Positions 22,640 through 62,591 of a DNA stretch of 64,000 nt are shown in pieces. The position numbers and the translations under genes are program-made. The notes under the pieces are model-generated. The model was not told where the DNA came from, made no database searches, and saw nothing but the letters and a program-made list of their open reading frames with translations. Source of the DNA: Raillietiella orientalis (lineage: Eukaryota); the NCBI GenBank assembly GCA_036172245.1, contig JAYWIR010000024.1, forward strand, positions 2,976,001-3,040,000. Direction: 5' to 3'. Position 1 is the stretch's first letter; every line of letters begins with the position of its first letter.

Positions 22640-22682
<43 letters not shown>

Positions 22683-23904: not shown

Positions 23905-24054
23905 CGTCTCCGGGATCGCCTCGCCGGAAACGCTCGTGTGAAATTTCCCCCTGGATGTCGCCTCCTTCCCCGGATCGCACCTCGCGGGGCCGCGGGCAGC
24001 GTGCCCTACTCCCTCCCTCTTCCCCGTCTTTTTAGCACGTAGTAAAACGCAGTG

Positions 24055-24060
24055 AATAAA
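24055..24060 (+). promoter_or_regulatory. Putative polyadenylation signal of scribbler
   Basis: AATAAA ~150 nt after the stop codon in an otherwise GC-rich region, followed by a GT/T-rich element (GTGTCTTTTTGT ~24079). Confidence 0.65.
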
Positions 24061-27000: not shown

Positions 27001-27080
27001 CATCAACCGGGGCGCGCCGCTCACACTCTGCCCGGTCTTGCTTGCAGCTTATGGAGGCACAAGCGCGTAAGTTGTTACGA

Positions 27081-27152
27081 GCGCTGGTGGTGTAGTGGTT
27101 AACATAGTTGCCTTCCAAGCAATTGTCCCGGGTTCGATTCCCGGCTAGCGCA
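27081..27152 (+). tRNA. tRNA-Gly, anticodon TCC, intronless
   Basis: GCGCTGG/CTAGCGC acceptor stem plus discriminator A, A-box TGGTGTAGTGG, anticodon arm GTTGC-CTTCCAA-GCAAT, T-arm CCGGG-TTCGATT-CCCGG; closely matches the canonical metazoan tRNA-Gly(TCC). Confidence 0.97.
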
Positions 27153-27160
27153 ACCCCTCG

Positions 27161-27164
27161 TTTT
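27161..27164 (+). terminator. Putative RNA polymerase III terminator (TTTT)
   Basis: T4 run 8 nt downstream of the tRNA 3' end. Confidence 0.6.
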
Positions 27165-29858: not shown

Positions 29859-29864
29859 TTTATT
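29859..29864 (-). promoter_or_regulatory. Putative polyadenylation signal of big bang
   Basis: TTTATT on + (AATAAA on -) ~190 nt past the TGA at 30057-30059, in GC-rich surroundings. Confidence 0.6.
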
Positions 29865-30056
29865 GGAGTGCGGGTGTGGGGCAGGCGGCTTCGGCGTATC
29901 GTGCGAGTCCTCGCTACCTCCCCTCCCCTCCCTCCGGGGCAAGGGGTAGCCAGAGGCGACGCGTGCTCGTTCGCCTCAGCCGCGGTCCACGGACGACGGC
30001 GGCGCCTGCCTTCCTCCTCGTTCGATGGTGGTGTTGGCCCGCCGTGAGCGCGGGCC

Positions 30057-33000: not shown

Positions 33001-34558
33001 ACCGCCGCGGTGCCCTGACCTCTCAGGCGAGCTGATTCTTCCCCCTCCTTTCTCCCCCTCCCTGGTGAGGTCGTTCGCCTCCCCCATTTAGGCCAGTGCG
33101 CGCACTCTCCTTAGTTGCATCCAGGCGTCGTGTCGCTGCTGGAGAGGAGCGCGGGATAGCAACGGCAGCGCCGACGGACGAGCGGGATCGATAGAGAGAA
33201 GGAAAGCATAGCGAGGAGAAGCAGCAGCTCTGGTCTCACCTGGGCCGTTGTGGAATCCGTTCTGAACGACGACGACCACGTCTTCATTCGCACGCGGAGG
33301 GTCTGCTGCTGCCACCACTCTCGGGGTCGAAGGGCACCTGCAACGATAGCACCGGCTCAGCCGCCTCCGTTTATTTACTGTCGCCACCACCACCGCCACC
33401 TGCGAGGAAATTTTCCTCACTCCTTTCCCTCACCCCACCCCCTCGCAGGTCGGGGCTGCGTTCCTTGGAAGCGAGGGATCTCTCCCGAGAACGCCGACAG
33501 CACCTATCACCCCATTCCCCGCCCTGTTCGCCATCTCCCGAGCGCGGTGCGGAAGGACTGGTTCGAGAGAGGAGGGAGGCGAACTCCGTTGGGAAACGAA
33601 GAGGGAAGAGAGCCAAGAATCTCCTCGAGGAGGGGGAGAAGGGGGGAGAGGAGGAGGAGGATCGGCCTTTGGAGCGGGCGCCGCCACTGACCAGAGAGGT
33701 ACAGGAGAGATACGCTTAGGCAGCAGCAGCAGCGAAGACGACGACGAGAATCGCGCTTTGCCACCTACCTGTCCGGGCCGGTGGTACTGGCGGGCCGGTG
33801 GCCGCCATTCACGGGCCCTCTTCTGCAAGGAGGAGGTGTCTTGACGCTTTCTGCGCTTCCGGCGGAGGAACTTTGCTCTCGGAGGGCCCAGACCCCGAAA
33901 TCGCGTTCCAGCTGCTCGAAAGGGAGCAGCACCTGCTCCAGGTCCACGGAGTCTTTGGTCAGGCAGTCGGAAAAGCTGTGGGCCCGAGACACGCTCTGGG
34001 AAGACGGTCCGGAAAAACTGGAGCTTCGGGACAGATGACCGCGCTGGTACCACGAGATGACCGTCGACGCGGAGCTGCCGGTCTCATCCGACTCGCTGCC
34101 GCCCCACAGAGCCCCTCCTCTGCGTTCCTCTTCCGCCAGGAGGTCGGTGTAAAACTCAGGGGTGGCCGGAGGTAGTTCCTGCTCGCTGTCGGAGAAGCCC
34201 TTCGGGGGGCTTAGGGTGAACGGTTCCGAGGGCCCGCGGATCTTCAGGCGGATCACCAAGGAGGAATCCCTGAACAGCCCGAGGCACTCGGAGCGAGTCA
34301 AACCGCTGACCGAGTAGCCGTCGATAGTCACGATGCGGTCGCCATCCCGGAGAGGCCCCCAGGAGAATCGCGCGCGGGACGCCGGACTGTTCTCGGCCAC
34401 CGACTGGATGTACAGCTTCGATCCATCTGGAGAGCCGCCTTCGAACCGGAGACCCAGTCCCAGCTTCTCTCCCGGCAGCCTGTATATGACTACCTCTTCT
34501 TCCTTGGCGCAAGAAGCCCCGTAGTCCGCACTCATCACGGGTGCTCCGTTCCTTGACT
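30057..34558 (-). CDS. bbg: Multi-PDZ scaffold, big bang / PDZD2 / pro-IL16 family (3 PDZ domains); exons ~34558-33769, 33337-33240, 32576-31887, 31400-31105, 31034-30876, 30811-30683, 30637-30463, 30416-30282, 30229-30057; 5' end unresolved
   Basis: N-terminal PDZ PGEKLGLGLRFEGG..KLYIQSVAENSPASRARFSWGPLRDGDRIVTIDG..LTRSECLGLFRDS; conserved linker HLRFSSLDSTTS..GSVTSLASSTSLISPQ/ELQQLLDDANQS; PDZ GIGITLAGGSDYENKEVT/VHKVISGSVADRDGRIQKGDRILSING; PDZ KDGSGLGFSLEGGRDSPQGDRPLVIKKLFS/GGLAEKQGVLSPGDQLVQVNG. Exon phases are mutually consistent. Middle exons (31.4-33.4 kb) and the first coding exon are less certain. Confidence 0.85.
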
Positions 34559-37500
34559 CTGGAAAAAGGGAAAGCTCATATTCGGCTGGGCATTCTTCGG
34601 CAGAGGTGGAAGAGGAGGAAACGTTCGCTGAGGACACTGGAAGGACTTGCCCCGACCCTTTCCATCTTCACCGCCGTCGGGAGAAAGCGCGACGGTACTG
34701 CGCTGCTGCCGCCGCCGCGGCGTGGGGAATGCCATCCAGAGAGGAGAGGAGGGCGGGGATTAAGGGAGCGAGAGAGACAGAGACAGAAAGAGGGGGTTCA
34801 CCTGCCTTTGGGCAATATGACGTGGACAGCGTCCGCAGATGCGCGAGTCACCTCAAGCACGCACGAATTCGCCAACGCCTCAGCGTCGAGCTGGCCTTGG
34901 CGCTCTTAGCGCGCAGAGAGCACGAGGAGAAAGAAAGCGCCTGCGGCAGGCGAGCACCAAAGCTCTCCGGATGTCTCGAGACACGCACAGCAGAGAGAAG
35001 AGGGCCGCCGGTGCGCTTTCGCTCCGGACGGGTCGTCCATTCGCAAGCGCATCCACGTGCATCCCTGCTTGGCGGCTGCTAATTAAGCAACAGTCTCTGC
35101 GTGTTCCTTTCCTCGTATTTTACAGGGTGCGTGAAAACACACACACACGCACGCACACACACACACACACACACAACCACTTCCTTGGAGAGAGGGAAGT
35201 TAGAAGAATGCGGGCAGCAGAGGGTCAAAGAGGGCCAGGTGTTCTTGAGGGGGTTGTCCTCTCCCTCCGGTCCGCACACAGCAAGCCGGTATGACAACTG
35301 TGCAAGAGAGCGCGCGCCTTTTTACTATAGCATCCTCGAGGGGAATGAGTGGGAAGAGATAATCCGCATTCCTTCCCCATGCCCGCGGGGATGACCCTAC
35401 AGTGATGTGCTGCTACTGTGCACGAATAAACCAACGGATGGTGTGTATGTTTTCAAGATAGTTTCGTGTGTTCGCGTGCTGTGAGCGTGACGCTGCGGCG
35501 CTCTGCTGCGCACGCACAGGAGCGGGCTGTTGGCGAGGCAAAAAGGGGCTCTCTTGTGGACTGCGGGCAAGCGTGTAATCGAGCAAGGAGCACACGCTCA
35601 CGTGACTGATACGAGAGCTCGCAGTCCTTCCTTTGAGCAATCCTCAGATTTCCCCGCTCGCCCTCCCCATCTTTCTCTTTCTCTTCACACACCCCTCCTT
35701 CTATCTTTCTTTCTCCATCGAGAGATCGCAAGCCTTTTCCAGAACCGTTGTTTCAGCAGCCACAGGCACAGCATGTCTGTGCTAATGGGAAAGCCCAAGC
35801 TGCGAACTATGGAATGGAACGAGCGTGCAACGAACTGCTGCCTAATCGTAGGAGACAAGTTTTTTAATGCCTTCGATCATTGCTCTGCCAAGGAAACCGG
35901 GCAAATGCCACACGTTTCCTCGTGTCCTGCTGAAAGCCGAAAATGCTTTCCTGCTTGCTTGCGGGTAAACTTATGTGCTTATCCGCGCGGGTTGCACCTC
36001 TGTGCATATGGGAAGCAGTAGCAGTTCAGGGCGAGCAGCCGATTGGCGACCAGGATTCCCCCTCCCCCCTCTCCCATATACGACAGGAACTGACGCGCCT
36101 ACTCCATCGTCAGTTCCTGCGATTCCCTGCACTGCCAGCAGGGTGCGCGGAGTACCGGTCGGACGGAGATCAGCTGAGAAGCGCCACCCCGGCGGGTGAG
36201 CATCGCGGAACGGTAGTCGACGGAGCAGTGACCAAGAGAATGGGGAAAACCCGATTCGCGAATCCGCCTCACGCCCGCCGACCACGCCTCGCTGTTCGCA
36301 CCGGTTCAGCTCGAGGATGCAAACTGCAAACTCGCTCGATGTGATGTCCTCCGACGTTCTTTGGTGACCAAGTGTGCAGGCGGACGCCATTTTCTTCCGG
36401 GAGGTCGGCATTCTGATACGTCCCTGAGGAATGCCAACCAACGAACGTTGTTCCTCCTCCTCCTCCTCCTCCTGCTGCGCTTGAATGGAGGCTGTCTGTA
36501 CAGCCATCGCTTCGAGACGGATGGGTGGCATAAACAATTCAAACGTAGGGCACTGCGTCACAGATGGGGTGTCATCATGTGGAGACGAAAAGCGCCTGCG
36601 GTTTACCAAGCACTCAAAAATGTGAGGACAGTTTCGCGAAAGCACTACCATGACTCATGTACGAGTCGAGAGATTACAGAAATCCGGGCAGACTCTGCTG
36701 CAAATGGCTCCGAATGCAACAAGAATCCTCGGGCTAAGGACTTCCTTCTATCTTTCTTTCTTTTTCCAACGATGAAGCGAGGGGGAAAAGCCCGCGTATT
36801 TCACACAGAGTAGGTCGACTCTCCCTCCGTTCCTCCTCAAGGGTCACTTTACTAATTAGGAAACTCACTCTGGGAAGACAAAGCGCGAGATTCCTTTAAA
36901 CTGAGGACAGCGCACATCGCAATTCCGCACCACTTTAGAGTATTACGGGAACTTCGAAGAGCAAAGGCCTGCTATTTACACGAAGCCAAGGGACATTGAG
37001 AAAACCTCCTCATTCGTATTCAGCTCACGAAATCAAACTTGCATCTAAAAATTGCTTTGAGGATCACTATTCTTGTACAAGAGATGAATGGAGAAAGTCA
37101 GGAGCATTCTACAACAAAGGCGAATGTTAGGGCGGCACTGATTACCAACTCTTTGGCAAAGTCGATAAGATCTCTTCAACACACGAAGGAGGAGGAAGAC
37201 TGAAAAAATTGAAATTCTGCCCGAGTAGGTTCAGCAAGATGAACCCATGGGTGAAAAAGAAAGAAAGAACTCTCGTTCGATGAAAACAGCCAAACTGGCA
37301 TGACATTCCAAGTCAAGGCTCAACAAGTGCGAAAACGTGGAAGGGTGCGTTGAATGGAAAAATGCACCCCTCCCTCCTTCTACAACCACAAAGGAATACG
37401 CGGTTTTGTGTGCAACTGTTTCGCACGAGTGACACGCGAACTTGCAGGCCACACGTAACACCACGCATGAGCTTCTTTTATTCTGTTTCGCCAATGATGT

Positions 37501-44045: not shown

Positions 44046-45490
44046 TTATTGCACGCGGCTGGTGTCGATGTCGTGGGGCACTTGCAACATTACTGTCCGG
44101 TTACCAATCACCATGGTGTGCTCTATATTCTTGGTTTTCATCCCCGGAGGTCGCGGCACGTCTCCCCCGACCTTCTGGGCCGAGGGCACCGCTTTCGGCG
44201 TGCCGAGCAGGGATTTGTTGGTAGGGTACTGAATCTTCTCTTTGAAGTACGGCTGCGGGTCACTGTCGTACTGCAGGCCCTCGTCGACCAGGAACGACGA
44301 GTGAGGAAAATCCGTTCGGGACAGGAGGGTTCTGCTCCGAGTGGTATCCCCCCCGCTCCTGTCCGCGGGGTCCAGCTCCGGGGCGTCGTCGCCGGTCTGC
44401 CGCATGTTCGGTAACAAAAGCAGAGAGATGGACAGCATGAGGACCAGCAGGCAGGTCGACGTCTGCGTGCCCTTGTTGGCGCCTTTGGCAAGGGTCTGCA
44501 GGCGTTTCAGCTGGGCAATTAAATTCTGATTTTCTCGCTGCAGCTCTTGCAGCTTCTGCTGAAGGGTCAGATTCTCCGTGGAGCACTGTTTCACCCTGCA
44601 GTGGAACAAATGGTCGTTACCCATCAAACGCATCTTTTCGAGACACGTGGAAGGATGGAATGCTACGGAGATCGGCCAGCTTGGTTCACAGAGCTGACAC
44701 GGGAATTACAGGTCGGAGAGAGAGAGGGAGAGAGACAGAGAGAGAGAGAGAGATTCCTTCCTTTTCCCGAAGGACAGGCGACTGACTGCCGTCAGCAGGG
44801 CTGTTGTTACGCCTGGTAAGTTCCAGGCATGCACAAACCCCCGTCCACGGCGAGCATCAGGGAGTGCTTACTTTTCCTCCAGTCCATCGATGTACTTCTT
44901 CTTTCTCTTTCGGGAATCCTGGGCAGACTGCTTGTTGCGTATCTTCCTGCGCAACCGCTTGAGCTCTCCCTCCTCATCTTTGGTCAGGGGGTAATGGGTG
45001 GGGAAGGAAATTCCCTCCTTTCTGGCTAGCCGGCGCTCTTCGTCTGAAAGCAGTCCTCGAAGGCTGAATGCTTTTTTCCTTTACCTGTAAGAACAAGCGG
45101 GGGGTAACCTTTGGACTCGGTTTTGCTCTCCAGCACGCGGATGGCGCGGATGTTCTTCAGGTTTTTGAAGGGAAGGATGAGAGGAGCACCTTTCAGGGTT
45201 ATTTTCGTGATGCGTGGCGGAGACTTCCTGGTTTCCAGGGGAGAGGATTTGGAAGAGGATTCCGGCTCCGCAGCATGCGGGGATGGCGAGCTGATCTCTG
45301 ATTGCAGATCATCGATATGAGACTCGATGATGCTCCCGTCCAGGGAGCACGATAAGGGAGACCGGCACAACGTATTCTCATCCCAGGATTGATTATCATC
45401 CATAAGATAATCCAGATCCAGTTCGGACTGGAACGGCTTAAGGAGGTGATCATCCCTCTCCCAAATATCGAACAGACAGAGATCCGCCAT
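44046..45490 (-). CDS. CREB3-family (Luman/CREB3L/OASIS-type) membrane-tethered bZIP transcription factor, join(complement(45085..45490,44872..45043,44046..44595)), ~375 aa
   Basis: ATB region [36 protein letters not shown]; basic region [29 protein letters not shown]; zipper [48 protein letters not shown]; luminal RSRTLL (S1P RxxL). GT-AG introns of 41 nt (45044-45084) and 276 nt (44596-44871, containing a GA repeat) are phase-consistent. The exact paralogue cannot be assigned. Confidence 0.92.
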
Positions 45491-46460: not shown

Positions 46461-49400
46461 ATGGATGCACAAAAAACAGAGGCGGGAAACATGAGCAGGA
46501 ATAAGCCGACCCAGAATCAAAAGAGAAAACATCCAACTGATGGCGACTCACGTGGAACTAAGCATGTAAGTTTGGAAGAAGAAAAATTAAGGATTGAATA
46601 ATACATAACCAGGAACAAAATCATGAATTCAGCAAATGGAAAAAGAGGAAAATTCCCGTTACCAAACTGGAAGGGGAGCAACCCGTAACCCACAACGAAC
46701 TCACCACTCTTCTGGAAACGGAACGCTTATATCATTCAAATCTCTTCCGATTACAGATCAGTGAGCTTCTTAAAGAGATGGAGCCATCTTCCAAAAAGAT
46801 GCTGCAGATTCAGAACTATTTGAAGCAGCTTGGAGAAAGGTTGCATGCCATTCCTGTGAAGAAAGATGTTCAGGTTAATAGTTGAAAGACTGATGCAAAA
46901 GTTTGATTCTTTGCAGATGGATAAAATGGCATTTCTCAAGAAGAACAATCTAAAGTTTCCTATACATTTCAAGAAACCACTACCATCTGAGATCATTACA
47001 TTGGCTCCTCCAAGTCATTTATTCCAAATTGGTTCATATGACCTAGGCACTTTGTTGTCATCTCATTTGGAAGTAGATCTGGCAGTTGAAATGCCTGCTG
47101 TAAGTTAATTCTGTGTGTTTTTCTGAAATAGCCTCATCACTTCAAGGGATATATATTACCTGCTGATGTATCAAGTGATAACTATTGGTATAAGATAGCA
47201 GCATATCTTTGCTATTTGGCTGCAGACTTGCAAAAAAGCGACTTGGTTACTGAACTGTTATTCTGCTATCTAGAAAACAATATTTTGCGCATAGAATTGC
47301 TACTCATTCCAGCTGGAGCAAAATTATCTGGTGTGCAGATACACCTACGTGCTATCCCTCCTCAGGAAGAAGAGACTTTATTCAAGTTTTTTCCCGAGTT
47401 CTCAAACATCTGTGGCCCGTGTATTGATACCACATGTACCTGCATATCTCACCATAATAATGAAATTGCTAAAGATTTGGTGACCCATTCCTTACAAACA
47501 ACCTTACGAACTGTGTTGGAAACAAAAGTGCTTTGTGATGCAGTACGATTATTAAAGGTCTGGGCCAAACAGAGGGATTTTCAGAATGCTGATAGTAGCA
47601 TGCTTCTTACAGCATTACTAGTGAAACTCTTTTTGCATCACAGAGTGCATTCCCACATGTCTAGTTACCAAATGGTTCGAGTGGTTTGGGAGCAAATAGG
47701 TAAGATACAAAATATTTCTGCTATCATAAATCCATGTTGCTTGCAGCTAACTCTGCATGGTGGGAGCAAGGCTCCTCTCTGAGTAATAACTGTGAAAATA
47801 TGGATTTGTTTAAAAGCCAGTTTGATGTTGTATTTCTTGATAGCACTGGCTGCTGTAACTTAGCAGGCAATCTTACGTTAGGCACTGTGAATAGAGTGAG
47901 TTTTATTCTTTTGTTGCATCATTTTCTCTCAGTTGCAGTATGAAGCACAAAAAGCCCTAGAAATTCTAGCAGATGCAGACAGTCTGGATAGCTTCACAGC
48001 ACTGTTTATGACACGTGTCTCGGCTTTTCGCAAATTTGATATGATTGTTCACTGTCCTATAGATGAAGCACAATTGCAAGCATTGCAAAAGGACAACCAA
48101 CTCATTGACTGGGGACATGGCTGCATGCATCTTGCTGTTCATACCCCTCTTATTAAATTGTTGCTTGGGGGCTTGGGTGCCAGGTATGTATGGGATAATA
48201 TCTTGATGGAAAATAATGAAAGGTAGGGTACATCTGATTACTGTGGAATCTCCTGTGAATCCTCCTTGGTCAGTGAAAGAACAAGCCAAGTCCTATGAGT
48301 TTCCCATACATGTGACTTTGCAGCTATTGCTTGATCCTGTGCTCAGCAAGAATAGAGTGGACAAATGTGAAGATGAGAAGGAAGTTTCAGAATTTAAAAA
48401 AATGTGGAAAAATCTATCACATGTTCGTCGGTATCCTGATGGTACTATCTGTGAATCAGTAGTGTGGGATGGTGCCAATCAGACTGAGAGACGCCAAATT
48501 GTGCAGCATATGTTGTTGTTTCTCCTTGAGAAGCATGCTGCCATTACACCACAAAAAGTAGTTTGCCACGTTAACATCTTAGATGATATGTTACGGTATC
48601 CTATAGTGAAAGTGATTGGTGCTACTAAGAGGGCAGAAGAGCTGCAAAAATTGCTTTCCAGTACTGGTGAAGAGGCTTTCTTACATCGTAAGTGTGGCAT
48701 GTGCAGTTGTGTGCAATAATTTACAATTATTGTTAGTTCATCACTGCTTTGACGCATTAAACAAAATGTTGCGTGAAGTGAAGGGTCTGCCCTTGACCAT
48801 TACTAGTGTTCAAGGAGTGAGTTCTGCTCTTCGTTACACCTCTGTTTTTCCTCCAATCCCTGCTAGTTGGAAATTTTCTGGTGGCAAAACGCGGTTTAAA
48901 AAGCGTAGCCCCATGCCATTAGCATCATTAATGGTGCTCCTAAAGTTGGAGGCTAGTGGACATTGGCCTGATGATATTGTTGCTATTCGCCATTTAAAAG
49001 CTGCATTTCATGTGGAGTTAGCATGTCAGCTTAAAAGGCAATTCGGTTTACAGACTTATGCAGAGCGCACTCATGTGGATGTTCTATATGGAGGTTACAT
49101 GTTTTCTTTGCACATAGCCTATTATCGGGAAATAGTGCTACGGCGTCAATATAAAGACTCTAGTGGTCGGTGGGCAGAGAAGGATACCCAGGAATCCTTG
49201 AAATTGCAGAAGCAAACACAAATTGCACCCAGAGCACACAATGCACTTTATGCTCTGCAACATCAGCATAGTAGTTTTGGTCTCACTTGTCGTTTGGCTA
49301 AGCGTTGGGTGAAGAGTCAGATGCTCAGTGGGCATCTACCTTCCATGCTGGTGGAATTATTAGTTGCACATCTGTATTTGAATCCTGGGGCCTATGGCAT

Positions 49401-50228
49401 TCCTGCTCACTCACAGCCCATGTTTCTTCGTTTTCTATCACTTTTAGCCAGCATGCCATGGCAGCACAAAGCCTTTATTCTCAAATTCGATGAAATGACA
49501 GGTAATTTGGGATACTTTTCTCTCATTCTTAACCAGATTTCCAGATGAACAGGCTGCCATAATTCAAGAGCGTTTTGACCATAATCGACAAACTTTGCCT
49601 GCCCTTTTTATATCCACCCCATGGGATCTGTCAAGCACTTACTCATCTAATGTGCCCAACTGTATATTAATTTGGCTAGGAAAGATTGCTCAGGCTGCAC
49701 TTCTGCAGTTGGAACAAAACCTTTCCTCAACAATAGCTTCTGATCACAAGAGCATCTTCCGTCCACCACTTAGTCATTATGATTTCCTAGTGGAGTTCAA
49801 TTCTATTCATGTTCCCAAATCCATTTTTGCTGTTGATCCTCCCAAGTCTTTTTGGCTGCTTGATGCAAATGTAACTGCTCAAAACAGTTATACCTTCCAT
49901 CAACCCATTTGTATTCCATCAGAATATCTACGTGAATTGAAAGTAAGAATTTATTACTTTGTGGCCATATCTAGTTCATTTTTAGGAAGCGTATGGTCAT
50001 ATGGCTGCCTTTTTCTATGACTCTTGGGGAGGATTAGTAGTTGGAGTGGTACTTAAGTCCCAGGCATCCATTCGTATTCCATTTCGAATAGCAGATGTAT
50101 GTGGCCACCGAAGAGTTGAAAATGAGCTAGAATTCAACAAAGAAGCATTTCATGATGATTTAATGGTTTTAGGAAAGGGATTAGTGACCAAAGTTAGCTC
50201 CTTGAAAAAAACTGAAATAAAAGATTGA
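46461..50228 (+). CDS. NOL6: Nucleolar protein 6 (Nrap/Utp22), 10 exons: 46461-46565, 46613-46873, 46917-47099, 47147-47699, 47747-47895, 47933-48183, 48227-48687, 48737-49501, 49545-49942, 49986-50228; ~1122 aa
   Basis: Motifs ETERLYHSNLFRLQISELLKE, IGSY..VDLAVEMP, DAVRLLKVWAKQR, FDVVFLDSTG..NLA, FKKMW....RRYPDGTICESVVW, LPLTITSVQGVSSALRYTSVFPP, LEASGHWPDDIVAIRHLKAAF, RLAKRWVKSQML, AAFFYDSWGG. All nine introns are GT-AG (47,43,47,47,37,43,49,43,43 nt) and phase-consistent. Confidence 0.95.
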
Positions 50229-50279: not shown

Positions 50280-53200
50280 TCAGCACTGATGTTCCAGATT
50301 GTTGCTAATGTATCCATTGGAAGGGTGGGAATTTCTTTTGTGAGGAAAAAGTAGCTTCCTGCCTGCTTTACGCACTAAAGATCGAGTGGAGGAAAGCTTG
50401 GATGAAGACAGAGATCCATAATGTTGGTTGCTATTTGGTTGCATAGATGGTGTTAAGGGGTCACTGGGGGTAGATACTACTTCCTCTCCTTCTTCGTGTC
50501 CATAATAGGCCAATTCCAAAAATGAAGAAGGCAAGTACTTTAATAAGTGGTCAAGCACTTCACGAAATGATATACGCTGTTCTGGATTGAAATGCCAGCA
50601 CTGACACATGATTTCAGCCAAGGGAATTGGACAGTTAGGTGGTGGCTCAAGGGTAAGCTGTCTTTCAGTGACACTGATCATTACTTCCTCATTATTCATA
50701 CCTTGGTATGGTTGATTGCCCAAAGTAACGATTTCCCATAGTACAACACCAAATCCCCACACATCCGATTTAGATGTAAATACACCTTGAATTAGTGCTT
50801 CCGGGGGCATCCAACGAACAGGAAGCATACCACGTCCTTTCTTTCGATAATATTCAGACCCATACACATCGCGGGCCATGCCAAAATCACCGACTTTTAC
50901 AGTCAAATCATCAGCAACCATACAATTTCGTGCAGCTAAATCACGGTGCACCACGTTATGCTCTGACAGATACAACAGTCCATCAGCGATTTCAGCACTC
51001 CAACGATATAACTGCTCAACACTAGGAAGTTCCGGTACAGGTCCCGAATGAGATTCGTCAGGATGCAGCCCTTGCAAATATGATCGCAAATCTCCGTGGA
51101 CCATCAATTCCATGAGCACCATAGGTGGTATTCCTCGAGATACGACACCCATGAGTCTCACAATATGATGGCATGAGAAAGGCTTCATGACAGTAGCCTC
51201 ATTGAGAAATTCTATCTGCTCAAGCAATGTTGTACCCTCATTGATGGTCTTGATGGCCACTCGCACATCAGAGCAGCCATGCAACTTTCGTACTGTACCC
51301 TCATATACCATACCAAATGATCCTTGCCCTAATTCTCGCAACAGTTGAACATCATCCCTGGGCACTTCTGTTTCATCAGGCGTGTATACTGAAATGCACG
51401 TAAGATTATGATGTAATAATCCAAGACATATAAATAATATAAATACCAATGCTTGCTGATACATATTCTGTATTAACTGAGGTAATCAAACCGCCACGAA
51501 GCCATTTGTGAGTCATACGTTTGCGGAAATACATGATAAGCAAGAAGAATACGATGCATACTGCCAAAAGTGCCAAGGTCACAGTAACAAGAATGCCAAT
51601 AAAACTCGTGGATTCTCCATACTAACATTGGTGATATGACATGAAAATTAAGAAATGTAAAGTACTTACTGGTACTGAAAAAACGCATTCTTGGGAAAAC
51701 TCACTCATACCAATCAAAGTCAATGTTTGAATTTGAAGAGTGTACACACCAGGAGCTAGTTTATTAGGCAGCTGATAGCTCTTGAAATCTTGCAGCCGCT
51801 CATAATCTCGCCATTCCAAGCAAATCTTAATCGGCAAATTCTAGAAAGCAGTAAGCAAATTACTAGACGTTCTTGCCAACTCACATTTTCTTCCACTGTG
51901 CGCACTTCCAAAATAAATGCCAAAATTTCTCCATTAGGTTCCGGAGGAGCATCCCACCACACTCTCACTTCTCCTGTAGTATTATTAATTGCTACATCAA
52001 TGCTTTTCATGTTGATGAGATCAGCATTATCTACCAAAGAACTGTATACCGCTGTCATAACTTGTACAAATCTACCTTTGGCCAGAGTTGTCACAGAACG
52101 CAATTCTGGTTTTGAACATGTGCGATCCGGTTCATCAATTGGAAGACAGTCTGGCTGGTTTGCAGGACATTCCAAATGCCGAAAAACGTATACACTAATA
52201 AGGTATTCCTGGAAGTGATGCAAATTCCCAACCTGCAGACTCCAGCTATCTTGTTCAGAAAATGGCACCACAAAATGGGTTTGGTCTTAGGAAATGGTAC
52301 TAGATGCTCTAAATACCCAACTTACTTTGCTGCCTCAATTCCTCTACCTGTACACACTGATCTTCCTTGCGATCCAAGAGTAATTCAGGTACAAGAGGAA
52401 GGACACTACGTACTGGCCGCTTACCGCAGGAAACCTGGCATGTTCTTGGAACAGGATAGCAGCGATCCGCTGCACGATCAAATACGTTGTCCTGAATGTA
52501 ATTTTCGAACTCGATAAAGCTGGTCTGGATACTAGGATCGATCTTCTCATGGGGTGGAGTCTCACATGGACACTGACAACCTTCCTTCTCAGTGGCATTG
52601 ACAACAGCACTAGGATGGGAGGCTGCTTCATCCTCCTCAAGTTCTTTTTGCTTGGGATCCATCTCATAATTGAGGTAGGATCGTGTACCGCCAAGTGATG
52701 CCTGACAAGCACTGTACACAGTATCCACCAGGGTGCGCTGGTGAGGCTCGATCATGACCAGAAAGTAGGAAAGGCGTCCATTAGCACGTGCAGGGGGCTC
52801 CCAAGATACTTCTAGGGAAGATGAGTTGATTGCACTGACTCGAAGATTGGTGACTGGATCAGGCAAGGAGGCAAATGTAGTAAAATAGGTAATATTGCTG
52901 ATAGCTCCATATGTCTCGGCACCTGTAGTATGTGTGCGCACATAGAGTCCATAATGAGTATATGGCTCCAAAGAGGATAGTTCATACTGCACCACATGAG
53001 GGAGATACATTAGGTTATTCTGGTCTAGTACAGGTGGTGAGGCCAACAGAGATTCCTCATTCATATCAATGATGGTCCAATGCTTTTCAAAGCAAGCATC
53101 TCGTCCCCCAAAATAAGTTAAGTTATGTTGTGGACCAGCATGTCGATAAGCTAATTCATAGCCAATGAGGTGACGCTGATCAGAGAGCCTTTTTGCAAAA

Positions 53201-54793
53201 TTAGCAAAAGTAACCATGGCTGATATCTCACTGAGGACTCGCACTGTCAGTTCTAATGGTTCCATATTGCAAGCAGCCAAATTGCCGTTTGAAAGTCGAA
53301 AATCACTCATATTAGCAGGTCCCCAAGGAGATAAGCCAGCTCGTTCACCAAAGATAAAGATGTGATCAGGACACAATTTGGGATTACTGAGAAACAGGAG
53401 CACACCATGCAACACCTTTACAGGACGAAGCTGTGAACCCCAGTCCCAGAGTTCCTGGAGATTGTCATTATGAGACACAACCACAGCATATCTGCCTGCA
53501 TCCAGTTTGTCTCCACGTATTGTGGTCAGATTCCTCAGAAAACCCAAAGATACAAGGGCAAAGGAGCGTGTTACTTTTAAATAATGGGAGATCTCTTGCA
53601 CTTCTCCCAGATACTTTTCCAAGGCATCAGCCACATCCTCACCTCCTGTTAACTGAATGTCCAAGGCACCATCTATGTGGGTGCATCCACTTAGTGCTCG
53701 AATTTCAGATACACTGCCAATGCGTCTATCAAGTTTGCAGTGCTTAGCACAAGGATTACATGGTACACATCTTCGAATCCCTGCTCCTTCACACACTTCT
53801 TGATGATCTGAGGGGCATTCTAGTACACAAAGTTTCTCTTTGTCATTCTCCAGCAGTTTCAGCATGCTATCTTTTGGGATTCCAGCAGCTTTAGGAGGTT
53901 GGGTTTGAAAAAGACACTGTTCCATGGTTAAGCAGCTCTCAGAATACTAATCAGCTCTAAAAGTGATGTTGACTCATTTGATATGAGGGTTACCCGAAAA
54001 AGGTGAGCAGGACATGATGGCTCACAGCGATCCTCTATTTGCACCATGCGGCAGGCATAGCACTGATGCTGACCTGGTCCAGTACAGCCTCCCAGACATT
54101 CAGCATGACAACACTCTTCTTGGCCATCAACTGTCCCTCGAGGTCCGCAATTCTTATTTTCTACATTCGCAAGACACTAAAAAGCCAATGGTAGGCAATC
54201 TGGTACTTACCTTCCACTTGACATACTTGAGCATTCCAAAAATGTTGACATTTGAAAGGTTTTAAATTCAAGCACTGCTTTTTGTTGCCCTGAAAAATGA
54301 AATCATTGCAATGCCATCTTTTAAATGAAGATTTACTCTCATAACGATGGCTCTCTTTGCTAGATGTTCTTGCACAATATCTCTCCAATTAATAGAATGA
54401 AGGTAGCAAAGTTTGGGGTTGGATTCTATCCTCACTCCACCACGCACCACACGCAGATTCCCAAGGGCAAGCTCTTCCAAGTCTTTGTTCTATAACCAAA
54501 AATTATGCTTTGCCATTTCTGGATGATGCATCCTACTTCAAAAATAATTAATGCGTAATTGAAGAACAAGTTCTCTCCCCGAATAACTCTCAAATTGGGA
54601 AACAGATGGCTTAAAGTATGCATGCCTGTTGTCTGATAAATCATCAAGTGATCAGTAATTTCCACCAAATGTGGTAAACTGTAATTGTGCCACTGATCAA
54701 TCAGGGCAAGCTGCAGATGACCTTCAATGACTGTACAGCTCTGCATTTCTTTCAGTTTTCCCGCATCAAATTTTATATTAAGACTGTGGCAAA
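50280..54793 (-). CDS. InR: Insulin/insulin-like peptide receptor tyrosine kinase (divergent); exons 54793-54537, 54489-54337, 54289-54211, 54160-53994, 53946-52326, 52285-52076, 52030-51885, 51840-51670, 51621-51447, 51388-50280 (~1360 aa); signal-peptide exon unresolved
   Basis: L1 (CTVIEGHLQL..LFPNLRVIRGENLFFNYALIIFE, GGVRIESNPKLCY), furin-like Cys-rich (CCHAECLGGC), L2 (GCTHIDGALDI, NLQELWDW, NPKLC), FnIII (LEPYTHYGLYV, WEPPARANG, PPEPNGEI), alpha-CT FENYIQDNVF, TM FIGILVTVTLALLAVCIVFFLLIMYF, kinase GQGSFGMVYEG/VAIK/HRDLAARN/DFGMARDVYGSEYYRK/LPVRWM. Nine phase-consistent GT-AG introns of 40-58 nt. Confidence 0.93.
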
Positions 54794-57700
54794 CTAGAGA
54801 CAAATAAATAATCATCTACTTCACTGTTACAAAGAAAATTTAAATTTTTTTCCGGAGCTTTTCATCTACAAAATTCACAATATCAAATAGCAAAAATTCA
54901 ATTGCAGGAACATTTGAAAAAATGCGGGAATATGAAACGTTCGTAACAAACCAATGCAGCAACTTGTACTACTGACAGACTTAAGGAACTCATTCAAGCA
55001 CATTAATTCAAACTCATTAATTTTATTGATGCATGAGGCATGTAATTCTGCTACAATTACATCTGATAAGGCTTTGAACCTCATGTTAGCTAGCTAGATA
55101 ATGCAATGTATTTGTTATTAAACAGTAATTGTCACTAAATGAGCAAAACCATCAATGTGCTAACAGAAACTACAATTTCTTTTTTACACAATTTGCAAAT
55201 AACAGGAACGCAACCATTCTTATGAAACAGTGATGATGCGATGAAAATGTTGATTCTATACAGAATTTCACAACAAACTAACCTGAACAAAACGGTTACA
55301 CAATAATTGATAATCCACATATTTGAATTTATGAAGTTCATGAAAAAGAAAAATTCATCAATGTCATTACTACATTTCAGAAAGATAAAGTATAGATTTC
55401 ATGTAAAAGACATGGAGCAAATCCCTGTACAAATTTCCTTAACAGTATTTTCCAGACATATATTCTCAAACCTAATGTTTCAGCTCCAATTTTAATAAGT
55501 TCAGTATTATATGGATTCGTTAAACTACGAAAAAGTACGATTACACTGAACATCAATGGGAGGAATTATTAATATTTAAATGTTAAATAGTATGATTTGA
55601 TCATACTATCTAATTTGTATCAAGTTATGTCAAGCCCTTCAAAATCAATGTTCCATTGCATCTTCACCCAGAGACCTATGCACCTGGGATAGATCATAGA
55701 ATAAAAGCATGAAAAACATATATGATGCAGTAATTGACCAATATTCGCTATATATCAGTGAACTGAAATTCTTAATCTGTATTACTAAATTTTACTGCCA
55801 TGCATGATCATTTCATTGTGCAAAACATCATGAGAGAACTGATCCAATAGACATCAGCAAAACTGTAAATTCAAGTAGTTAAACTGATTGTTTGAGATGC
55901 TTATTAGTGACCTTGTCTTATGAAATGGAATCAAAGGCATGTGCTTTAACTTGAAACGTCGACCTTGTTTGAAATAAAGTCTACTCCTGAGCATATCCAT
56001 ATCAACTTCTTATCACTTATTTTCTCATTAAAAAATTGCCTTTTTTCCCCCTCTTTCACATACAAAGATTTCAAAATTTCCCACATTGCCGTTGCAATTC
56101 TACAGTTTATAAATTCTTTCGTAAATTTGGAAACTAATTTTCTCCTCGTTTTTCGACAATGATATTAGTTCACTTTTAGAACCTCCTTTACTAACTCGAG
56201 TTTAATTTCTTTTTCTTATATTGGTTTAAAAATTGGTTTTTGTTCAAACTTTAACAAAATTTATCCTTTGTTCAGTATTAACGATTTTATTTGGTTAATT
56301 AAGAGAAACTAGATTCTCCAGAATTTAAAAATTCTGAAGACCCCTGTTGAATGACGATCCATCATTAATTACACACAATTAGTCATTCAGCTATTTCTTA
56401 TTGCAGTTACACTTATTATGACTAATGAATAATTCATAGCTTCATATCAAGCATTAGTTTTTCATGAACAGCATGAACACATATTTTGAACTTACGATAC
56501 CCAAATAGTTTTACCCATGATTTATAAAAATTTTAAAATAACTGGACTACAAGTAAAGCTTTATTCAGATTATATTGCTTGTTTCCATTTTTGTCATGCT
56601 ATATTATATGACTTTTTTCATTTGCACTTCATTCAAATAGTATTACCAGTTCTAATTGTGATTTTTATCAGTGTAATACAAGTAATCAAAAAATTATTAG
56701 GTCTTCAGAGGTCTCTCGCTAAAGCTTAAAGTTAAAAAGTTAAAGCATTTTTCTTTAAATCTTTGAAAAGTGTTTGGGTGGTTGCTTTCTCAGAATAGAA
56801 ATGTATCCTTCCTATCTTCCACCACTACAGCATGCTTTCATGGTCTCCACCCCACACAAATTATGGAACCATTTTTCTCGTCTCAAGTTTATTCATTTAT
56901 GATTCCTCAGTAGAAAAAAACGTTTGCATTTAGTTACTTCTAACCAGATAAGTAAATAATAATTGCACATTCAGGTGTTTACATTTATAATCTCATTCGC
57001 CACGACTCTTGTGCTCATCACCATTCTGTATGTAAATTCTTAAGTACTAAAGTATTCTGCATGTAAAGCTATTATTATATTGTGAAAAATTTTACAATAA
57101 ATTGAATCTGAAAATACTGAAAAACTAATGTACTATTTCCTGTATCAAAACTTTCAATCACATTCAATCACTTCTTTTTTTAAAAAATCATAATTAGTGG
57201 TAGAACTCTGTATTCTATTTATGAACTAGCTATACTTTGTTAATAATGTTACCTGTTCAACATCTTTTAACCAAGTGAAATAATATCAATGAGGTGGTCT
57301 AGAAACTCTGGTTTGCTTCTATGATACAAAAGTAAGATGAAATTACTGATTCTTCAATCTAAGCATGCACCATCATGATACTGAAGTAATGTTGACACAA
57401 ATAATTTGTGACAATCGTTTTCAAAAAAATGTACAGAAAAATCAGGAAGTAGAATCTTGAATGTTGATTAGAAATTGAAATGATGAGCTAGTTTTCATAG
57501 TTAATTAATGTTGGATAAAGTGCTGTATCATTAGAAATGACCTGCAAAAGTAGCAATTCAGAAAACAAGAAAACCAATGCAACTGCAAAATAAAATTATA
57601 TCAAGAAAGAAATACATAAACATTGACAAACAAAAGTTAACAATAGTATTCAAAAGATATGCTAACTAAAAAATACACTGCCACTGAATAAATCATATAA

Positions 57701-59424
57701 AAAAAATAAAATTCTTCTAGATGCACTTAATTTACATTCTTCTGGATGCACTTAATACAATAAGTTCTGTATTCTTTCCAGCAAATGTAAAAATAACATC
57801 TGCAAAAAAAGGACAAAAAAGAAAAAAAAAGAAAAGAAAAGAAACAATACATTAAAAATCCAGGGAATAAGGCTGATAACGATCACATGTAGACAATTCT
57901 GAAAACTTTCTGTCCAGGTACCATCCCACAAGCTAATGGTCTCCATAAATCTAACCTAGTGTCACTCATGGTTACTCTATGGAGCCTATTTATGGATTTA
58001 CTTAACACTAAGATGCTAAATCCGTAAATTTTCATGAAATAAATTCGGTTGTTTCATGATTCATAAAAGAGCTCTGCAGAAGACTGTGGATTTTGTACTC
58101 TGTTTGTGGGTACACTGAAAATGATCTTTGTGATTGAACATGAAATTTATCATTGTCAAAGGACTATGCAGACTGCACATGTTTCTTCAACTGCTGAAAT
58201 CCAATTTTGCTAATTCATACAAACACCCAGAAAGATGTATGGAAGAATGGTTTTTTTTTGGATGGCTAAAGCTGTTTTGAAAAGAAATTTTAAAATTTTC
58301 CTACAAAGAAGCACACGTTTTTTTGATCGAGAAAACTTGATTTGCAGAGGATGGCAGTAAAATTGCGTAGTTTGAAATTACAAAAAGTTTATACAAATAG
58401 GAAAGTACGTGCTTAAATAAACCGAAAAATTGCAAGTTCAGGAATATTTGAAACACAAACCAATCAGTGAAGTAAACATAAAATCAAAAACAATTTTCCG
58501 CTAACCAGAATTCTAAAATTCATCTTGAAAAGAAAACCAATGCACATATGCAAAGGAATAAACTATTTGAATGAAGTACCTATCAACAATTTATAAATGA
58601 TTCCTCTGGAGAAGGAGAGCGTTTAATGTGACCTGGTGGTTATTTACAAATGCAGCATGTTAAGAGAAAAATGAGTGACGGAACATATTTATAAGTAATA
58701 TGTTTGTGTAAATGATGGAAATCAGTACTTTTGCAAAAACTCTAAAAGAGCTGATTTCACCATATATTCAAAATTTCCAAATATTCACCAAATATCCTGT
58801 ATACAAGTATTTAGTAAACTTTCGAATACTTGATGGTTACTTCATGCTTCATGAAGATAACATTTTTCTTCAAGAACAAACGACTCAAACAATTTTTCGG
58901 TTACATATAAGAATTAAAAGATTTATGGAACGCTTACCTTTCCTCTCGAGAGCATCGACAGCAAATCGTGCTGCAAAATTAAAAATAAATAATACAAAAC
59001 TACCCAGGAATATAATTTTGAACATAGTTTTGAACTAATTGGGACATATGTTTAAGTCTATAATGGATATGCTTTTGAGCTAAGAATCCAAGATAAAAAT
59101 TTCTTCATTTTCTTCATTTCTTCTTTTGGAAAGAATTGTTTTTCACAGATTATTTAATGCAACCAAGTTCACATCTTTTAATTTTTCAAATCCTACATTT
59201 TTATGTCCCACATATACTTAGTTTGGATACATCCACATCCATTTTCACCTGTACTTGTATTTACCATTGCAACTAATGGTCCACTGTGGCTTGAATGGGC
59301 AAAAATTGATAAAAACAGCAATTCTTTGAATAGCTTGAATACAAAATGTACTACGCATTTTTTCAATCTCAATGAATTCCAGACAGATTGGAAAGCATTT
59401 TCACCTAAACTGAATATGATGGGG

Positions 59425-59515
59425 AACTGGCAACCTGGAAATACGAAAAGCATTTAAATACCAACGGCAAATTTGTAAACAAACTTCGGTACTAACGCTC
59501 CATCACGTTGTTTAC
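59425..59515 (-). promoter_or_regulatory. Candidate InR core promoter: two FOXO DBE sites, TATA-like box and Inr-like element
   Basis: GTAAACAA at 59475-59482, TTGTTTAC at 59508-59515, TATTTAAA on - at 59460-59453 and CCAGTT on - with its A at 59428 (32 nt downstream); CpG density rises again here. Confidence 0.45.
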
Positions 59516-60735
59516 GACTATTAGTATGAGACGCTGCGTATTGAAACAGATCAATGACACCAAAGCAGAATGCACATTTTAGTCATTTATTTATCGGACT
59601 TTTCTATTTAGCTTTAAAGATTCTGTAATTTTGATGCACATTCTCAACACTGATTCGCAAAACAATGTACATAAATTTCGAAATCAAATAATCGTTGATC
59701 TTAGGTTTGAGCCGCTTTCGATTAAAACAGGATGTATTAGAATGATAATTAAGCATCATTGATAATGGACGATTAAAGTAAATTTCCATCAGAAATTCTT
59801 CATGAGAGTCATTCAACATATCTTCAGATGGAATGGGTCGACTTTTAACGGCCCCTTGAAGGAAAAAAAAAAATTTTCGATTCATAAACCATTTCTCCAT
59901 AAATGGACAGTTATGGATAAAAATCTTCCGATTTAGTGTACTACAGGGGCTGTCTGGTGCACAGTATGAGCTTATACGATTCTGATTTACATGTCTATTC
60001 AGTTTAATATTTTGAATCAAAAGAGACTGATACATTTAAAAATAGGGATCATATCGTCAATAAATAATCCTACAAACGAGCTATCCTTCATGACTTAGTA
60101 TGATCTCGTTATCATTGCTTGTTTGCTCCTTGTTCGTTTTGTTGGCAATACGAACGATGATTCTGCAATAAGCACCAAAGAAACAGTAAAAATACTGATA
60201 TAATTGCTCAATAGCAAACTGAGAGATATGTAAGGTGAATTCACCCAGTTTTTATCGTAAAAATGCACACTTTGTTTGAATTCTCATAGATTCTTGGAAC
60301 TTCAAAAGTTTTGGTTCCAATTTTGAACTCTTTTTTTTCACTCTGCCTTTACTGAAAAGCTCTTGAGGATTCTTAGTGAAAACTGTAAAACATTTTTTTA
60401 TACCTGAGGTGAGCGCTGTTGCTTAAGAGACAGTATCATCATTTAATGCTACTTCTTTTCTTCTGAGAATTTTAGCCAGATGATGGATTTATGAGCTTTC
60501 ATTTTAGTAGTGCATTCCCAATGATAAACATATGATCTGATCGCATTATCAGCAGTGATTTCCTAGTTTTGTGAAAGCAGTTTTGAATGGTTTCGTATTT
60601 GTTTCCTTTTAACATGGAAAATAAATAGCAGCCAATTCAGTAAACCATTTTAATAGCTGATGCGCCATTCTTCTGAAAACTACGGTTTCTTTCCTGCATT
60701 GCTTCGAATTCTTACCTTGAGATCTTCTATTGTAA

Positions 60736-61251
60736 AACCTATTCCAAAAATTCCGTTCTACACTTTTGTTGCTCTTGTTGTTCCCTGCTGTCATTGCAAG
60801 CTTACTCTTGTGGATACAAACTATTGAAATGACCACCATGTGGTTCGGCGCTAATGTGTGTACTTTATTTTCATACTGCCTGGGATGCTTTTCCAATCAG
60901 GTATCGTACGATTCCGGATCTGCACCTGGTTCTGTGATGGTAATTTAAAAGCAAGTGAGATGAAGATTGCTTTCTATTCGTAGCCTCTCCGTTACGAATT
61001 TTCAGCTTTTCATCAGTTTCACCATAGGGATTTTTCCGAATGGTTAGAGAACATGTTGACAGATCCAGCGTTTGATTTTGTCTCTAGTGTTCCTGCTAAG
61101 CGGAACGCTCCTGCTTACTGGGATTCGGAAAGGAACTTCGTATTTCCTCAGCATATGGTATACTTGTTTCGGAGGAAGCTCTTCTGTTTACCTCTTAATC
61201 TTCCTTGACTTTTTTTCCTCTTGGGAACCAAGGGTGATTTCTATGCATTTG
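60736..61251 (+). CDS. Candidate partial small multi-pass membrane protein (two putative exons ~60736-60900 and 61063-61251)
   Basis: Hydrophobic segments LLLLLLFPAVIASLLLW and IQRLILSLVFLLSGTLLLTGIRKGTSYFLSIWYTCFGG..VYLLIFL join in phase 0 via CAG|GTATCG...GACAG. Start and end not found. Confidence 0.3.
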
Positions 61252-61564
61252 GTAGGAGGCTTCATATTTTCTTTCGAAAAATGTTTGTGCTGAAAAATTT
61301 CAATCATGGAGGGGAAAAAAAAATAGAGCAACTCTCAAGGATCTAAGGAAATCTTTGGGAATCCTGAGCATGGAAAAATATAACGATTATGCAGGGATTG
61401 TTTTGCAGTGAAGCACGGTTCTTTTCATAATACACAAATGAGGACAGCTGTATACCCGAGCGGGACAGCAAATGATAAACATCGTAATAAGAATTCAGTA
61501 ATGTACGAGACACTCATTATTTGAAACAGGATACAAATTCATCTGACGGTGTTCAAATAAGACC

Positions 61565-61599
<35 letters not shown>

Positions 61600-62591
61600 A
61601 ACACGGGGAAAGGGGGTAGTGGTTTCAAAGCTCAAGCCGAATTACGATGTCTCGGGTTCAAAATAAATCGCAACCAGCAAAACGACCATCAGAAACAAGG
61701 TGTAACTTTGTTTTTGCTTGCAGCTGTCTTCAAGGATCTAAGATTTCAAGATTCGTTTCACGCAGAGTTCTCCTTTAAGCATCACTTCAACTCTTTCTTG
61801 AAGTAGTCATCAAGTCGAGAACAAATCTGTTACAGTGAGGACTTACATTTCACGTCTTCCTCGTGATTAACCCTGCGGGTTCTGATTTGATTCCCACCAA
61901 TTCACTTTATCTTCACAACGTTTACTTTGATCCTGATGTTTTATTCTGTTGATTTAGTTCTTCGGGCATTACTTGAAGAGCTTGATAAAGGCTGCTTGTC
62001 CCTACATGACTAGGAGATAATGGTAACCAGGTATGACTTAGCAACCGGTGGCCTCTTATGCTTGCCACTTCGAAGCGAAATTTTAGAGTGCTGCCGCCCC
62101 CCACCCCACCTAAAGAATGAAGCTTATGATCGAAAGCACTCACGATGGTGTAGTTCTTGATGCAAACTTTTTTCGCATTCCCTTTTTTCTCTATTCTTCC
62201 GATGGCATCAGCTGAAATAGAAATCAATTTCTATTTCATAGATGATAAATTGCTGCAACTCTTTCCTCCGTACGACGAATCGATTCACGATGTCTTTTTA
62301 ATATGATCACGGCAAGGATTCAGGGAGCTGATGCATTTCATTCCACTGCAGCTGAGGATAGTCTGTTCTTCTACTGGAACTGGCTCGACCATGATGTCTG
62401 ATGTTTCCATTAGAAGTTGCGGTGTTCCCTTGCTAGTGAGAGGGATAGCAGCAACATGCATCGTATGCCAGCATCTTTCGTGACAACCGGGCGAGTTCGA
62501 GATCTCGGGACTCTTTCTTTGAATTTTAGAACTGCTTCGCTTTCCACGTGTCTTGCGATGACGCCGTATGCCTGGGAACCTCACATGCCAA

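Follow-up and report, generated by a model that had tools for sequence, protein, structure and literature searches.

An insulin-type receptor gene of Raillietiella orientalis that reads NTEY at the juxtamembrane NPxY docking position

A stretch of 64,000 nucleotides from Raillietiella orientalis (assembly GCA_036172245.1, contig JAYWIR010000024.1, positions 2,976,001 to 3,040,000 of the forward strand; hereafter the window, in whose own numbering positions are given) contains a previously unannotated gene that encodes a receptor tyrosine kinase of the insulin/IGF type. In receptors of the insulin receptor/IGF1R family the juxtamembrane segment carries an NPxY motif, a docking site for the phosphotyrosine-binding (PTB) domains of adaptors of the IRS/Chico and Shc types; in the receptor described here that motif is replaced by NTEY. 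The question raised by this locus is whether the receptor signals largely without IRS, as was proposed in a first-pass annotation made from the sequence, or whether it is a working receptor in which the docking site has drifted.

The docking segment and the receptor that carries it

The gene model was built from open reading frames, from tblastn searches with six members of the family and from an enumeration of the GT/AG pairs that keep the frame. It is complete-looking and extends from 54815 to 50283 on the minus strand, with 1363 stop-free codons in eight exons (Table 1). Leaving aside the signal peptide and the furin-type cleavage site, for which there are only candidates, every defining feature of the insulin-receptor family that was tested is present, with the exception of the juxtamembrane NPxY.

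The segment in question, at 51480-51447 on the minus strand, is TCA GTT AAT ACA GAA TAT GTA TCA GCA AGC ATT G, which translates as S V N T E Y V S A S I, and leaves one base over, the first of a split Val codon. Thr is encoded by ACA at 51471-51469, where the family residue is Pro; a single base separates ACA from the Pro codon CCA. When spliced, the juxtamembrane segment reads ...GGLITSVNTEYVSASI|VYTPDETEV, in which the split codon G|TA supplies the V that precedes YTPDETEV. Reading through the 58 nucleotide (nt) intron that follows 51447 leads to an in-frame stop after 13 codons. The substitution had been placed by the first-pass annotation exactly where NPxY belongs, and the spliced sequence had been given as TSVNTEYVSASI/VYTPDETEV. 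The ACA codon and the alignment confirm the former, and the GT...AG intron, the stop on read-through and the start of the next exon from 51388 confirm the latter. An alternative juxtamembrane exon was ruled out, as the flanking introns, of 48 and 58 nt, leave no space for one. RNA editing back to Pro was likewise ruled out, since by the genetic code neither A-to-I nor C-to-U changes make a Pro codon from ACA.

The surroundings of the substituted residue are typical of the family. From position -8 to position +3 of the docking segment, the commonest family residue is found at 9 of the 12 positions, and Leu -8 (L981), Ile -7 (I982), Asn -3 (N986) and Tyr 0 (Y989) are all retained. These are the residues that would be expected of an IRS/Shc-coupled docking site: a review describes Leu -8 as important for the IRS-1 PTB domain, and Asn -3 together with a hydrophobic residue at -7/-8 as important for that of Shc (PMC3355962).

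The order of the receptor domains, from Pfam matches and alignments, is L1, Cys-rich, L2, fibronectin type III (FnIII), alpha-CT, transmembrane helix and kinase. The L1/Cys-rich/L2 ectodomain that characterizes the insulin receptor and IGF1R is represented by Recep_L_domain matches on three exons and by a Furin-like match. Exon D aligns to residues 283-714 of the human insulin receptor (E 6.4e-62), including the Cys triplet (CQCPC at 52578-52564, aligned to human CCSCP) and the alpha-CT helix (the alpha-CT-like FIEFENYIQDNVF at 52518-52480, in which FENYIQDNVF is aligned to human FEDYLHNVVF); both lie within an insert in the FnIII region, as is found in the family. A single transmembrane helix is followed by a tyrosine kinase domain with its G-loop, VAIK, HRDLAARN, DFG and YxxxYY elements, the last as YGSEYY, in agreement with the first-pass description of an insulin receptor whose kinase is intact. 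The possibility of a kinase-less decoy receptor (SDR, DR2) was rejected, since the kinase exon follows without a break in the same reading frame.

Departures from the family consensus do occur elsewhere. Of the 77 columns with a conservation of 90% or more among 64 other receptors, the protein agrees at 72 and departs at five (P987T, A1125S, M1132L, K1139N and S1206G), all of them outside the catalytic motifs. In divergence it comes 12th of 65. The Ser of the DVWSFG segment, invariant in 64 of 64 others, is Gly here (aa 1206, at approximately 50754-50756). The conserved PDEWEV reads PDETEV (51363-51388), but its Trp, present in 47 of 65 aligned rows and also replaced by Thr in P0302, is less conserved than the docking Pro. 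The 91-residue C-terminal tail has five Tyr residues, among them those of NQHY (aa 1315) and NGYI (aa 1352), and it lacks NPxY, as had been stated earlier; NPx[Y/F] is in fact absent from the entire 1363-aa model. The sole YxxM in the cytoplasmic part sits within the kinase core.

Conservation of the docking proline and relatives of the receptor

The extent to which the docking Pro is conserved was determined in three surveys. The first comprised 136 mostly vertebrate proteins with 134 kinase G-loops, and NPx[YF] was sought within 75 residues upstream of each. It was found upstream of 127 of the 134; the remaining seven were a truncated N-terminal kinase copy and six vertebrate entries in which the juxtamembrane segment is swapped for unrelated sequence, and which are probably annotation variants. 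In the second survey, of diverse representatives from an exhaustive search, NPx[YF] was present at 48 of 60 G-loops and absent at 12. For the third, the juxtamembrane-plus-kinase segments of 64 other, diverse receptors were aligned with MAFFT. The Pro column contained P in 58 of these, E in two, A in two, T in one and R in one, while Asn was kept in 62 and Tyr in 61. The six non-Pro motifs were NANY (P0277), NAEY (P0372), NRQY (P0364), NEQY (P0272), DTEF (P0357) and NEAP. In P0357, as in P0291, the flanks of the docking site have decayed, unlike those of the present receptor. In P0277, P0372, P0364 and P0272, which belong to the same family, Asn and Tyr are kept while Pro is replaced, as is the case here; none of the four is close to this receptor, and the losses occur in separate parts of the trees. 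Since the presence or absence of the motif changes at least seven times on a 62-row tree, loss of the Pro appears to recur in otherwise intact receptors. From these alignments, the Pro is judged to be strongly yet not absolutely conserved, with repeated losses in receptors that otherwise seem intact.

No paper containing both 'NTEY' and 'insulin receptor' was found in a literature search, and other literature searches turned up no account of the variant, though supplementary alignments may show further non-Pro variants. A search for the relevant terms in the main text of two evolutionary studies (PMC12796670, PMC2978223) found no mention of the docking motif. The substitution is thus unusual but not unique, receptors without the motif having already been published. 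EmIR2 of Echinococcus multilocularis is described as a full insulin-receptor-family kinase without a juxtamembrane NPXY, the downstream signalling of which is stated to be unknown (PMC3923246). By that description it resembles the present receptor; it differs in being a flatworm protein with an NPXY-bearing partner, EmIR1, whereas here the Pro alone is changed. In Drosophila InR, likewise an invertebrate receptor, the juxtamembrane NPXY docks Chico and is one of five redundant NPXY sites, four of which are in a long C-terminal tail; mutation of all five is reported to halve body mass while viability and axon guidance are spared (PMC3895810). The receptor described here has, by contrast, a short tail and no NPXY at all. 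Aphid InR1 and InR2 have both been reported with NPXY (PMC5343892).

Comparison with the vertebrate insulin receptor and IGF1R (PDB 8eyx_A and 3i81_A; amphibian INSR, P0004) reveals the same domain order and, over the kinase exon, an identity of approximately 56-60%; all share the YxxxYY loop, the Tyr of VY.PDE, Leu -8, Asn -3 and Tyr 0. The differences are NTEY for NPEY, PDETEV for PDEWEV, the lack of a GPLY-like second Tyr, a minimal RPVR cleavage site, a C-terminal tail without YxxM, an overall identity of 39% and a gene of eight exons with introns of 40-160 nt.

Among the matches listed for the kinase exon, the best were vertebrate receptors, at 51-60% identity. For the ectodomain exon, a word-based search returned nothing above 37% identity, and an exhaustive search of 1.84 billion representatives returned nothing above approximately 40%. 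Among the matches to the kinase exon, a rotifer protein of 1237 residues (P0002) scored 563 bits at 47% identity, a high score attributable to its two receptor-type kinase domains; tandem genes may have been fused in its annotation. A scan of metagenomes yielded 45 loci, none of them close (the best was 55% identical over residues 1-310); two of the 45 had a recognizable transmembrane-plus-juxtamembrane stretch, and both read NPDY. The Atlas search, with the ectodomain exon as sole query, matched only arthropod ectodomain-type, decoy-like clusters. In both a kinase-only tree and a full-length tree, the latter carrying a long-branch warning, the receptor falls within starred sets of vertebrate receptors and unnamed representatives, apart from the named insect receptors.

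Additional data on the lineage were provided by the neighbouring gene, NOL6/Nrap, whose protein has an identity of 41-42% to those of molluscs, spiders and birds, with none of the three standing out. In a tree made from one clean exon of 248 residues, NOL6 falls in a 16-row set that contains all 14 named arthropod rows and one ENA row, with a support of 96 in the Shimodaira-Hasegawa-like approximate likelihood ratio test (SH-aLRT). The lineage may tentatively be described, from its sequences, as that of a non-insect arthropod, unsampled and fairly fast-evolving, with very short introns. A chimeric or contaminant origin of the receptor gene was rejected, as the adjoining NOL6 gene has the same compact structure.

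Interpretation of the substitution

The data presented above suggest that the gene probably encodes an ordinary, working receptor, in which the docking motif has changed from NPxY to NxxY and would continue to serve the PTB adaptors, with reduced affinity or a changed preference. In such a receptor, ligand would bind at L1 and alpha-CT, the YxxxYY of the activation loop would be trans-phosphorylated, and the juxtamembrane Tyr989 would be phosphorylated. A single Pro-to-Thr change would have turned NPxY into N-T-E-Y, all other determinants of the site being kept, and adaptors of the IRS/Chico and Shc types would still dock there, in a weakened or retuned manner, and would not be uncoupled. We infer that the receptor is expressed, that Tyr989 is phosphorylated and that adaptor binding is affected in this way. 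Weakened or retuned docking is to be expected because the residues at -8, -7, -3 and 0 are intact. The largely IRS-independent signalling put forward in the first-pass annotation is not supported in the form in which it was stated, since the Pro alone is altered and those four determinants, with a hydrophobic residue at -7, are retained. NXXY peptides have been treated as a class of PTB ligands in array work, and 'NPXY/NXXY' motifs of DAF-2 have been discussed as Shc sites (PMC4985636, PMC11630764).

Several observations weigh against this interpretation. PTB domains are reported to bind the motif as a beta-turn that follows an N-terminal strand (PMC3507883). The Pro appears to be under strong constraint in the family, since it is present in 58 of the 64 others. 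Pro-to-Ala changes markedly weaken binding by the PTB domains of both IRS-1 and Shc. Because of this effect and of the beta-turn in which the motif is bound, PTB binding could be effectively lost in the present receptor. No close relative is present in the searched libraries, and hence no orthologue from which conservation of the Thr could be judged. The terminal branch of the receptor is long both in the kinase tree (1.01; median, 0.33) and in the full-length tree (1.2; median, 0.65), as could be the case for a relaxed paralogue; it need not mean this, since the branch of NOL6 is long as well (0.93; median, 0.49). In the human receptor the cleavage site is tetrabasic, while here the only furin-type site after alpha-CT is the minimal RPVR (52419-52408, aa 715-718), with no R-x-[KR]-R. 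Finally, a search 5' of Exon A found no decisive signal-peptide exon among the candidates.

The foremost alternative, which we consider unlikely, is that the gene is a specialized paralogue, catalytically active and uncoupled from IRS/Chico, which signals via different adaptors or forms heterodimers with a canonical receptor and so modulates it. The absence of NPx[YF] from the model, the confinement of YxxM to the kinase core and the long terminal branch in both receptor trees are compatible with such a role, as would be, by analogy, the multiple receptors that crustaceans, insects, flatworms and other groups are reported commonly to have, and the pairing of a motif-less EmIR2 with a motif-bearing EmIR1 (PMC7253209, PMC3923246). 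The retention of all of the other docking determinants would, however, be unexpected for a site that had long been abandoned, and the long branch of NOL6 tells against this alternative as well. The eight exons found here recall the insect Cluster II receptors, which are reported to have nine or fewer; with these and with planthopper InR2 the gene may also share a role in modulating a canonical receptor (PMC7253209). Against this, the gene stands apart from the named insect receptors in the full-length tree, and the small number of exons may simply reflect short and few introns genome-wide, NOL6 being intron-poor as well. The earlier suggestion of a heterodimer modulator has a published analogy in the antagonism of planthopper InR1 and InR2 (PMC7253209), but nothing in the receptor sequence favours it. 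Only one insulin-receptor-type gene was detected by tblastn within the window.

A further alternative, regarded as somewhat more doubtful than the paralogue, is that the Pro-to-Thr change is a fixed and selected switch: the canonical IRS/Chico PTB domain would no longer read the site, which would be used instead by another adaptor that reads NxxY, or would be gated by phosphorylation of the Thr at -2. If this were true, the lineage would have an insulin-type receptor with an active kinase that feeds into another output or attenuates a canonical partner receptor.

It is improbable that the Thr codon results from a mistake in base calling or assembly or represents a rare allele, with CCA as the true codon and an ordinary NPEY as the motif. 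ACA and CCA do differ by one base only, and the remainder of the motif, SVN-EYVS, is the commonest sequence of the family. Single-base substitution errors are, however, rare in finished assemblies; the other departures from conserved columns (S1206G, and the W-to-T change in PDEWEV) indicate a genuinely divergent sequence, and non-Pro variants are present in 6 of the 64 other receptors. Least probable of all is a recently inactivated or unexpressed copy with a docking site that is beginning to decay, since the uncertain 5' exon and signal peptide and the long terminal branch, which would suit it, are countered by 1363 stop-free codons over eight exons with canonical splice sites, by agreement at 72 of the 77 highly conserved columns with all catalytic motifs present, and by the retained alpha-CT and Cys triplet.

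If the Thr is real and fixed, a working receptor of this kind would constitute a natural experiment on the weight of the Pro in NPxY when all other docking determinants are kept, and it would be an arthropod-side example beside the flatworm case of motif-less receptors. A divergent insulin-type receptor is also documented here from a lineage that is absent from the protein libraries searched. The general picture is unchanged, as the family is known and the Pro has been lost repeatedly (it is missing in 6 of the 64 others).

Gene structure and neighbouring sequence

The coordinates of the exons and of the main motifs are listed in Table 1. The seven introns of the receptor gene are 47, 160, 47, 40, 44, 48 and 58 nt in length, and all are of the GT-AG type; six of them are thus within 40-58 nt and very short.

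Table 1. Exons, motifs and other features of the receptor gene in the window. HSPs, high-scoring segment pairs.
Feature	Position	Strand	Evidence
Exon A: first part of L1 domain	54537..54815	-	Pfam Recep_L_domain E 6.6e-15; tblastn to six receptors; donor GTAGGA
Exon B: end of L1 domain	54337..54489	-	Pfam Recep_L_domain E 2.7e-6; splice sites
Exon C: Cys-rich (furin-like) region	53994..54176	-	Pfam Furin-like E 9e-13; splice sites
Exon D: end of Cys-rich region, L2, FnIII-1 and FnIII-2 with insert	52326..53946	-	Pfam Recep_L_domain E 6.1e-22, fn3 E 1.9e-11; human insulin receptor alignment
Exon E: FnIII region, beta chain	51885..52285	-	weak fn3 E 1.9e-4 (below Pfam cut-off); tblastn HSPs; splice sites
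Exon F: end of last FnIII domain	51670..51840	-	open frame between GT-AG introns of 44 and 48 nt; spanned by tblastn with amphibian INSR; no Pfam match of its own
Exon G: transmembrane helix (51603-51526) and juxtamembrane segment RKRMTHKWLRGGLITSVNTEYVSASI	51447..51621	-	reading frame; splice sites
NTEY in place of NPxY docking motif	51463..51474	-	translation; alignment
Intron between juxtamembrane and kinase exons, 58 nt, GTATTT...TTTCAG	51389..51446	-	24% G+C
Exon H: VYTPDETEV, tyrosine kinase domain (~51347-50544) and 91-residue C-terminal tail	50283..51388	-	PDB human insulin receptor chains E 4.4e-114, over residues 973-1274; Pfam PK_Tyr_Ser-Thr E 2.6e-89
G-loop GQGSFG	51329-51312	-	
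VAIK	51260-51249	-	
HRDLAARN	50948-50925	-	
DFG	50888-50880	-	
Activation loop YGSEYY	50864-50847	-	
Receptor stop codon	50282-50280	-	

The open frame of Exon A begins eight residues ahead of the first Cys of L1, and a signal-peptide exon is expected upstream of it. Several candidate upstream exons fit; the likely acceptor for Exon A is at 54793, and one candidate first exon is at 59025-58938. Upstream of the receptor lie approximately 7 kb of AT-rich sequence (54900-62000, 29-37% G+C) without a long open frame, where the missing signal-peptide exon and the promoter would be expected.

On the other side, the NOL6/Nrap gene (46600-50228, plus strand) converges on the receptor gene. It is built of few large, closely spaced open frames and is thus compact, as is the receptor gene. 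Because approximately 50 bases separate the two stop codons, the 3' untranslated regions of the two genes must overlap or be extremely short.

Other elements were observed farther from the receptor. An exon at 44868-45080 on the minus strand encodes a bZIP transcription factor (Pfam bZIP_1, E 3.4e-9), the basic region of which presumably resembles the CREB3/OASIS type. A minus-strand gene at 30410-34667 contains two PDZ domains, and a long open exon at 21469-23904 on the plus strand has one C2H2-like stretch, without a Pfam match. The sole Rfam match is a tRNA-Gly(TCC) at 27081-27152. These last three elements belong to a block at 22000-36000 in which the G+C content rises to 58-66%, while it drops to 29% at 56-58 kb.

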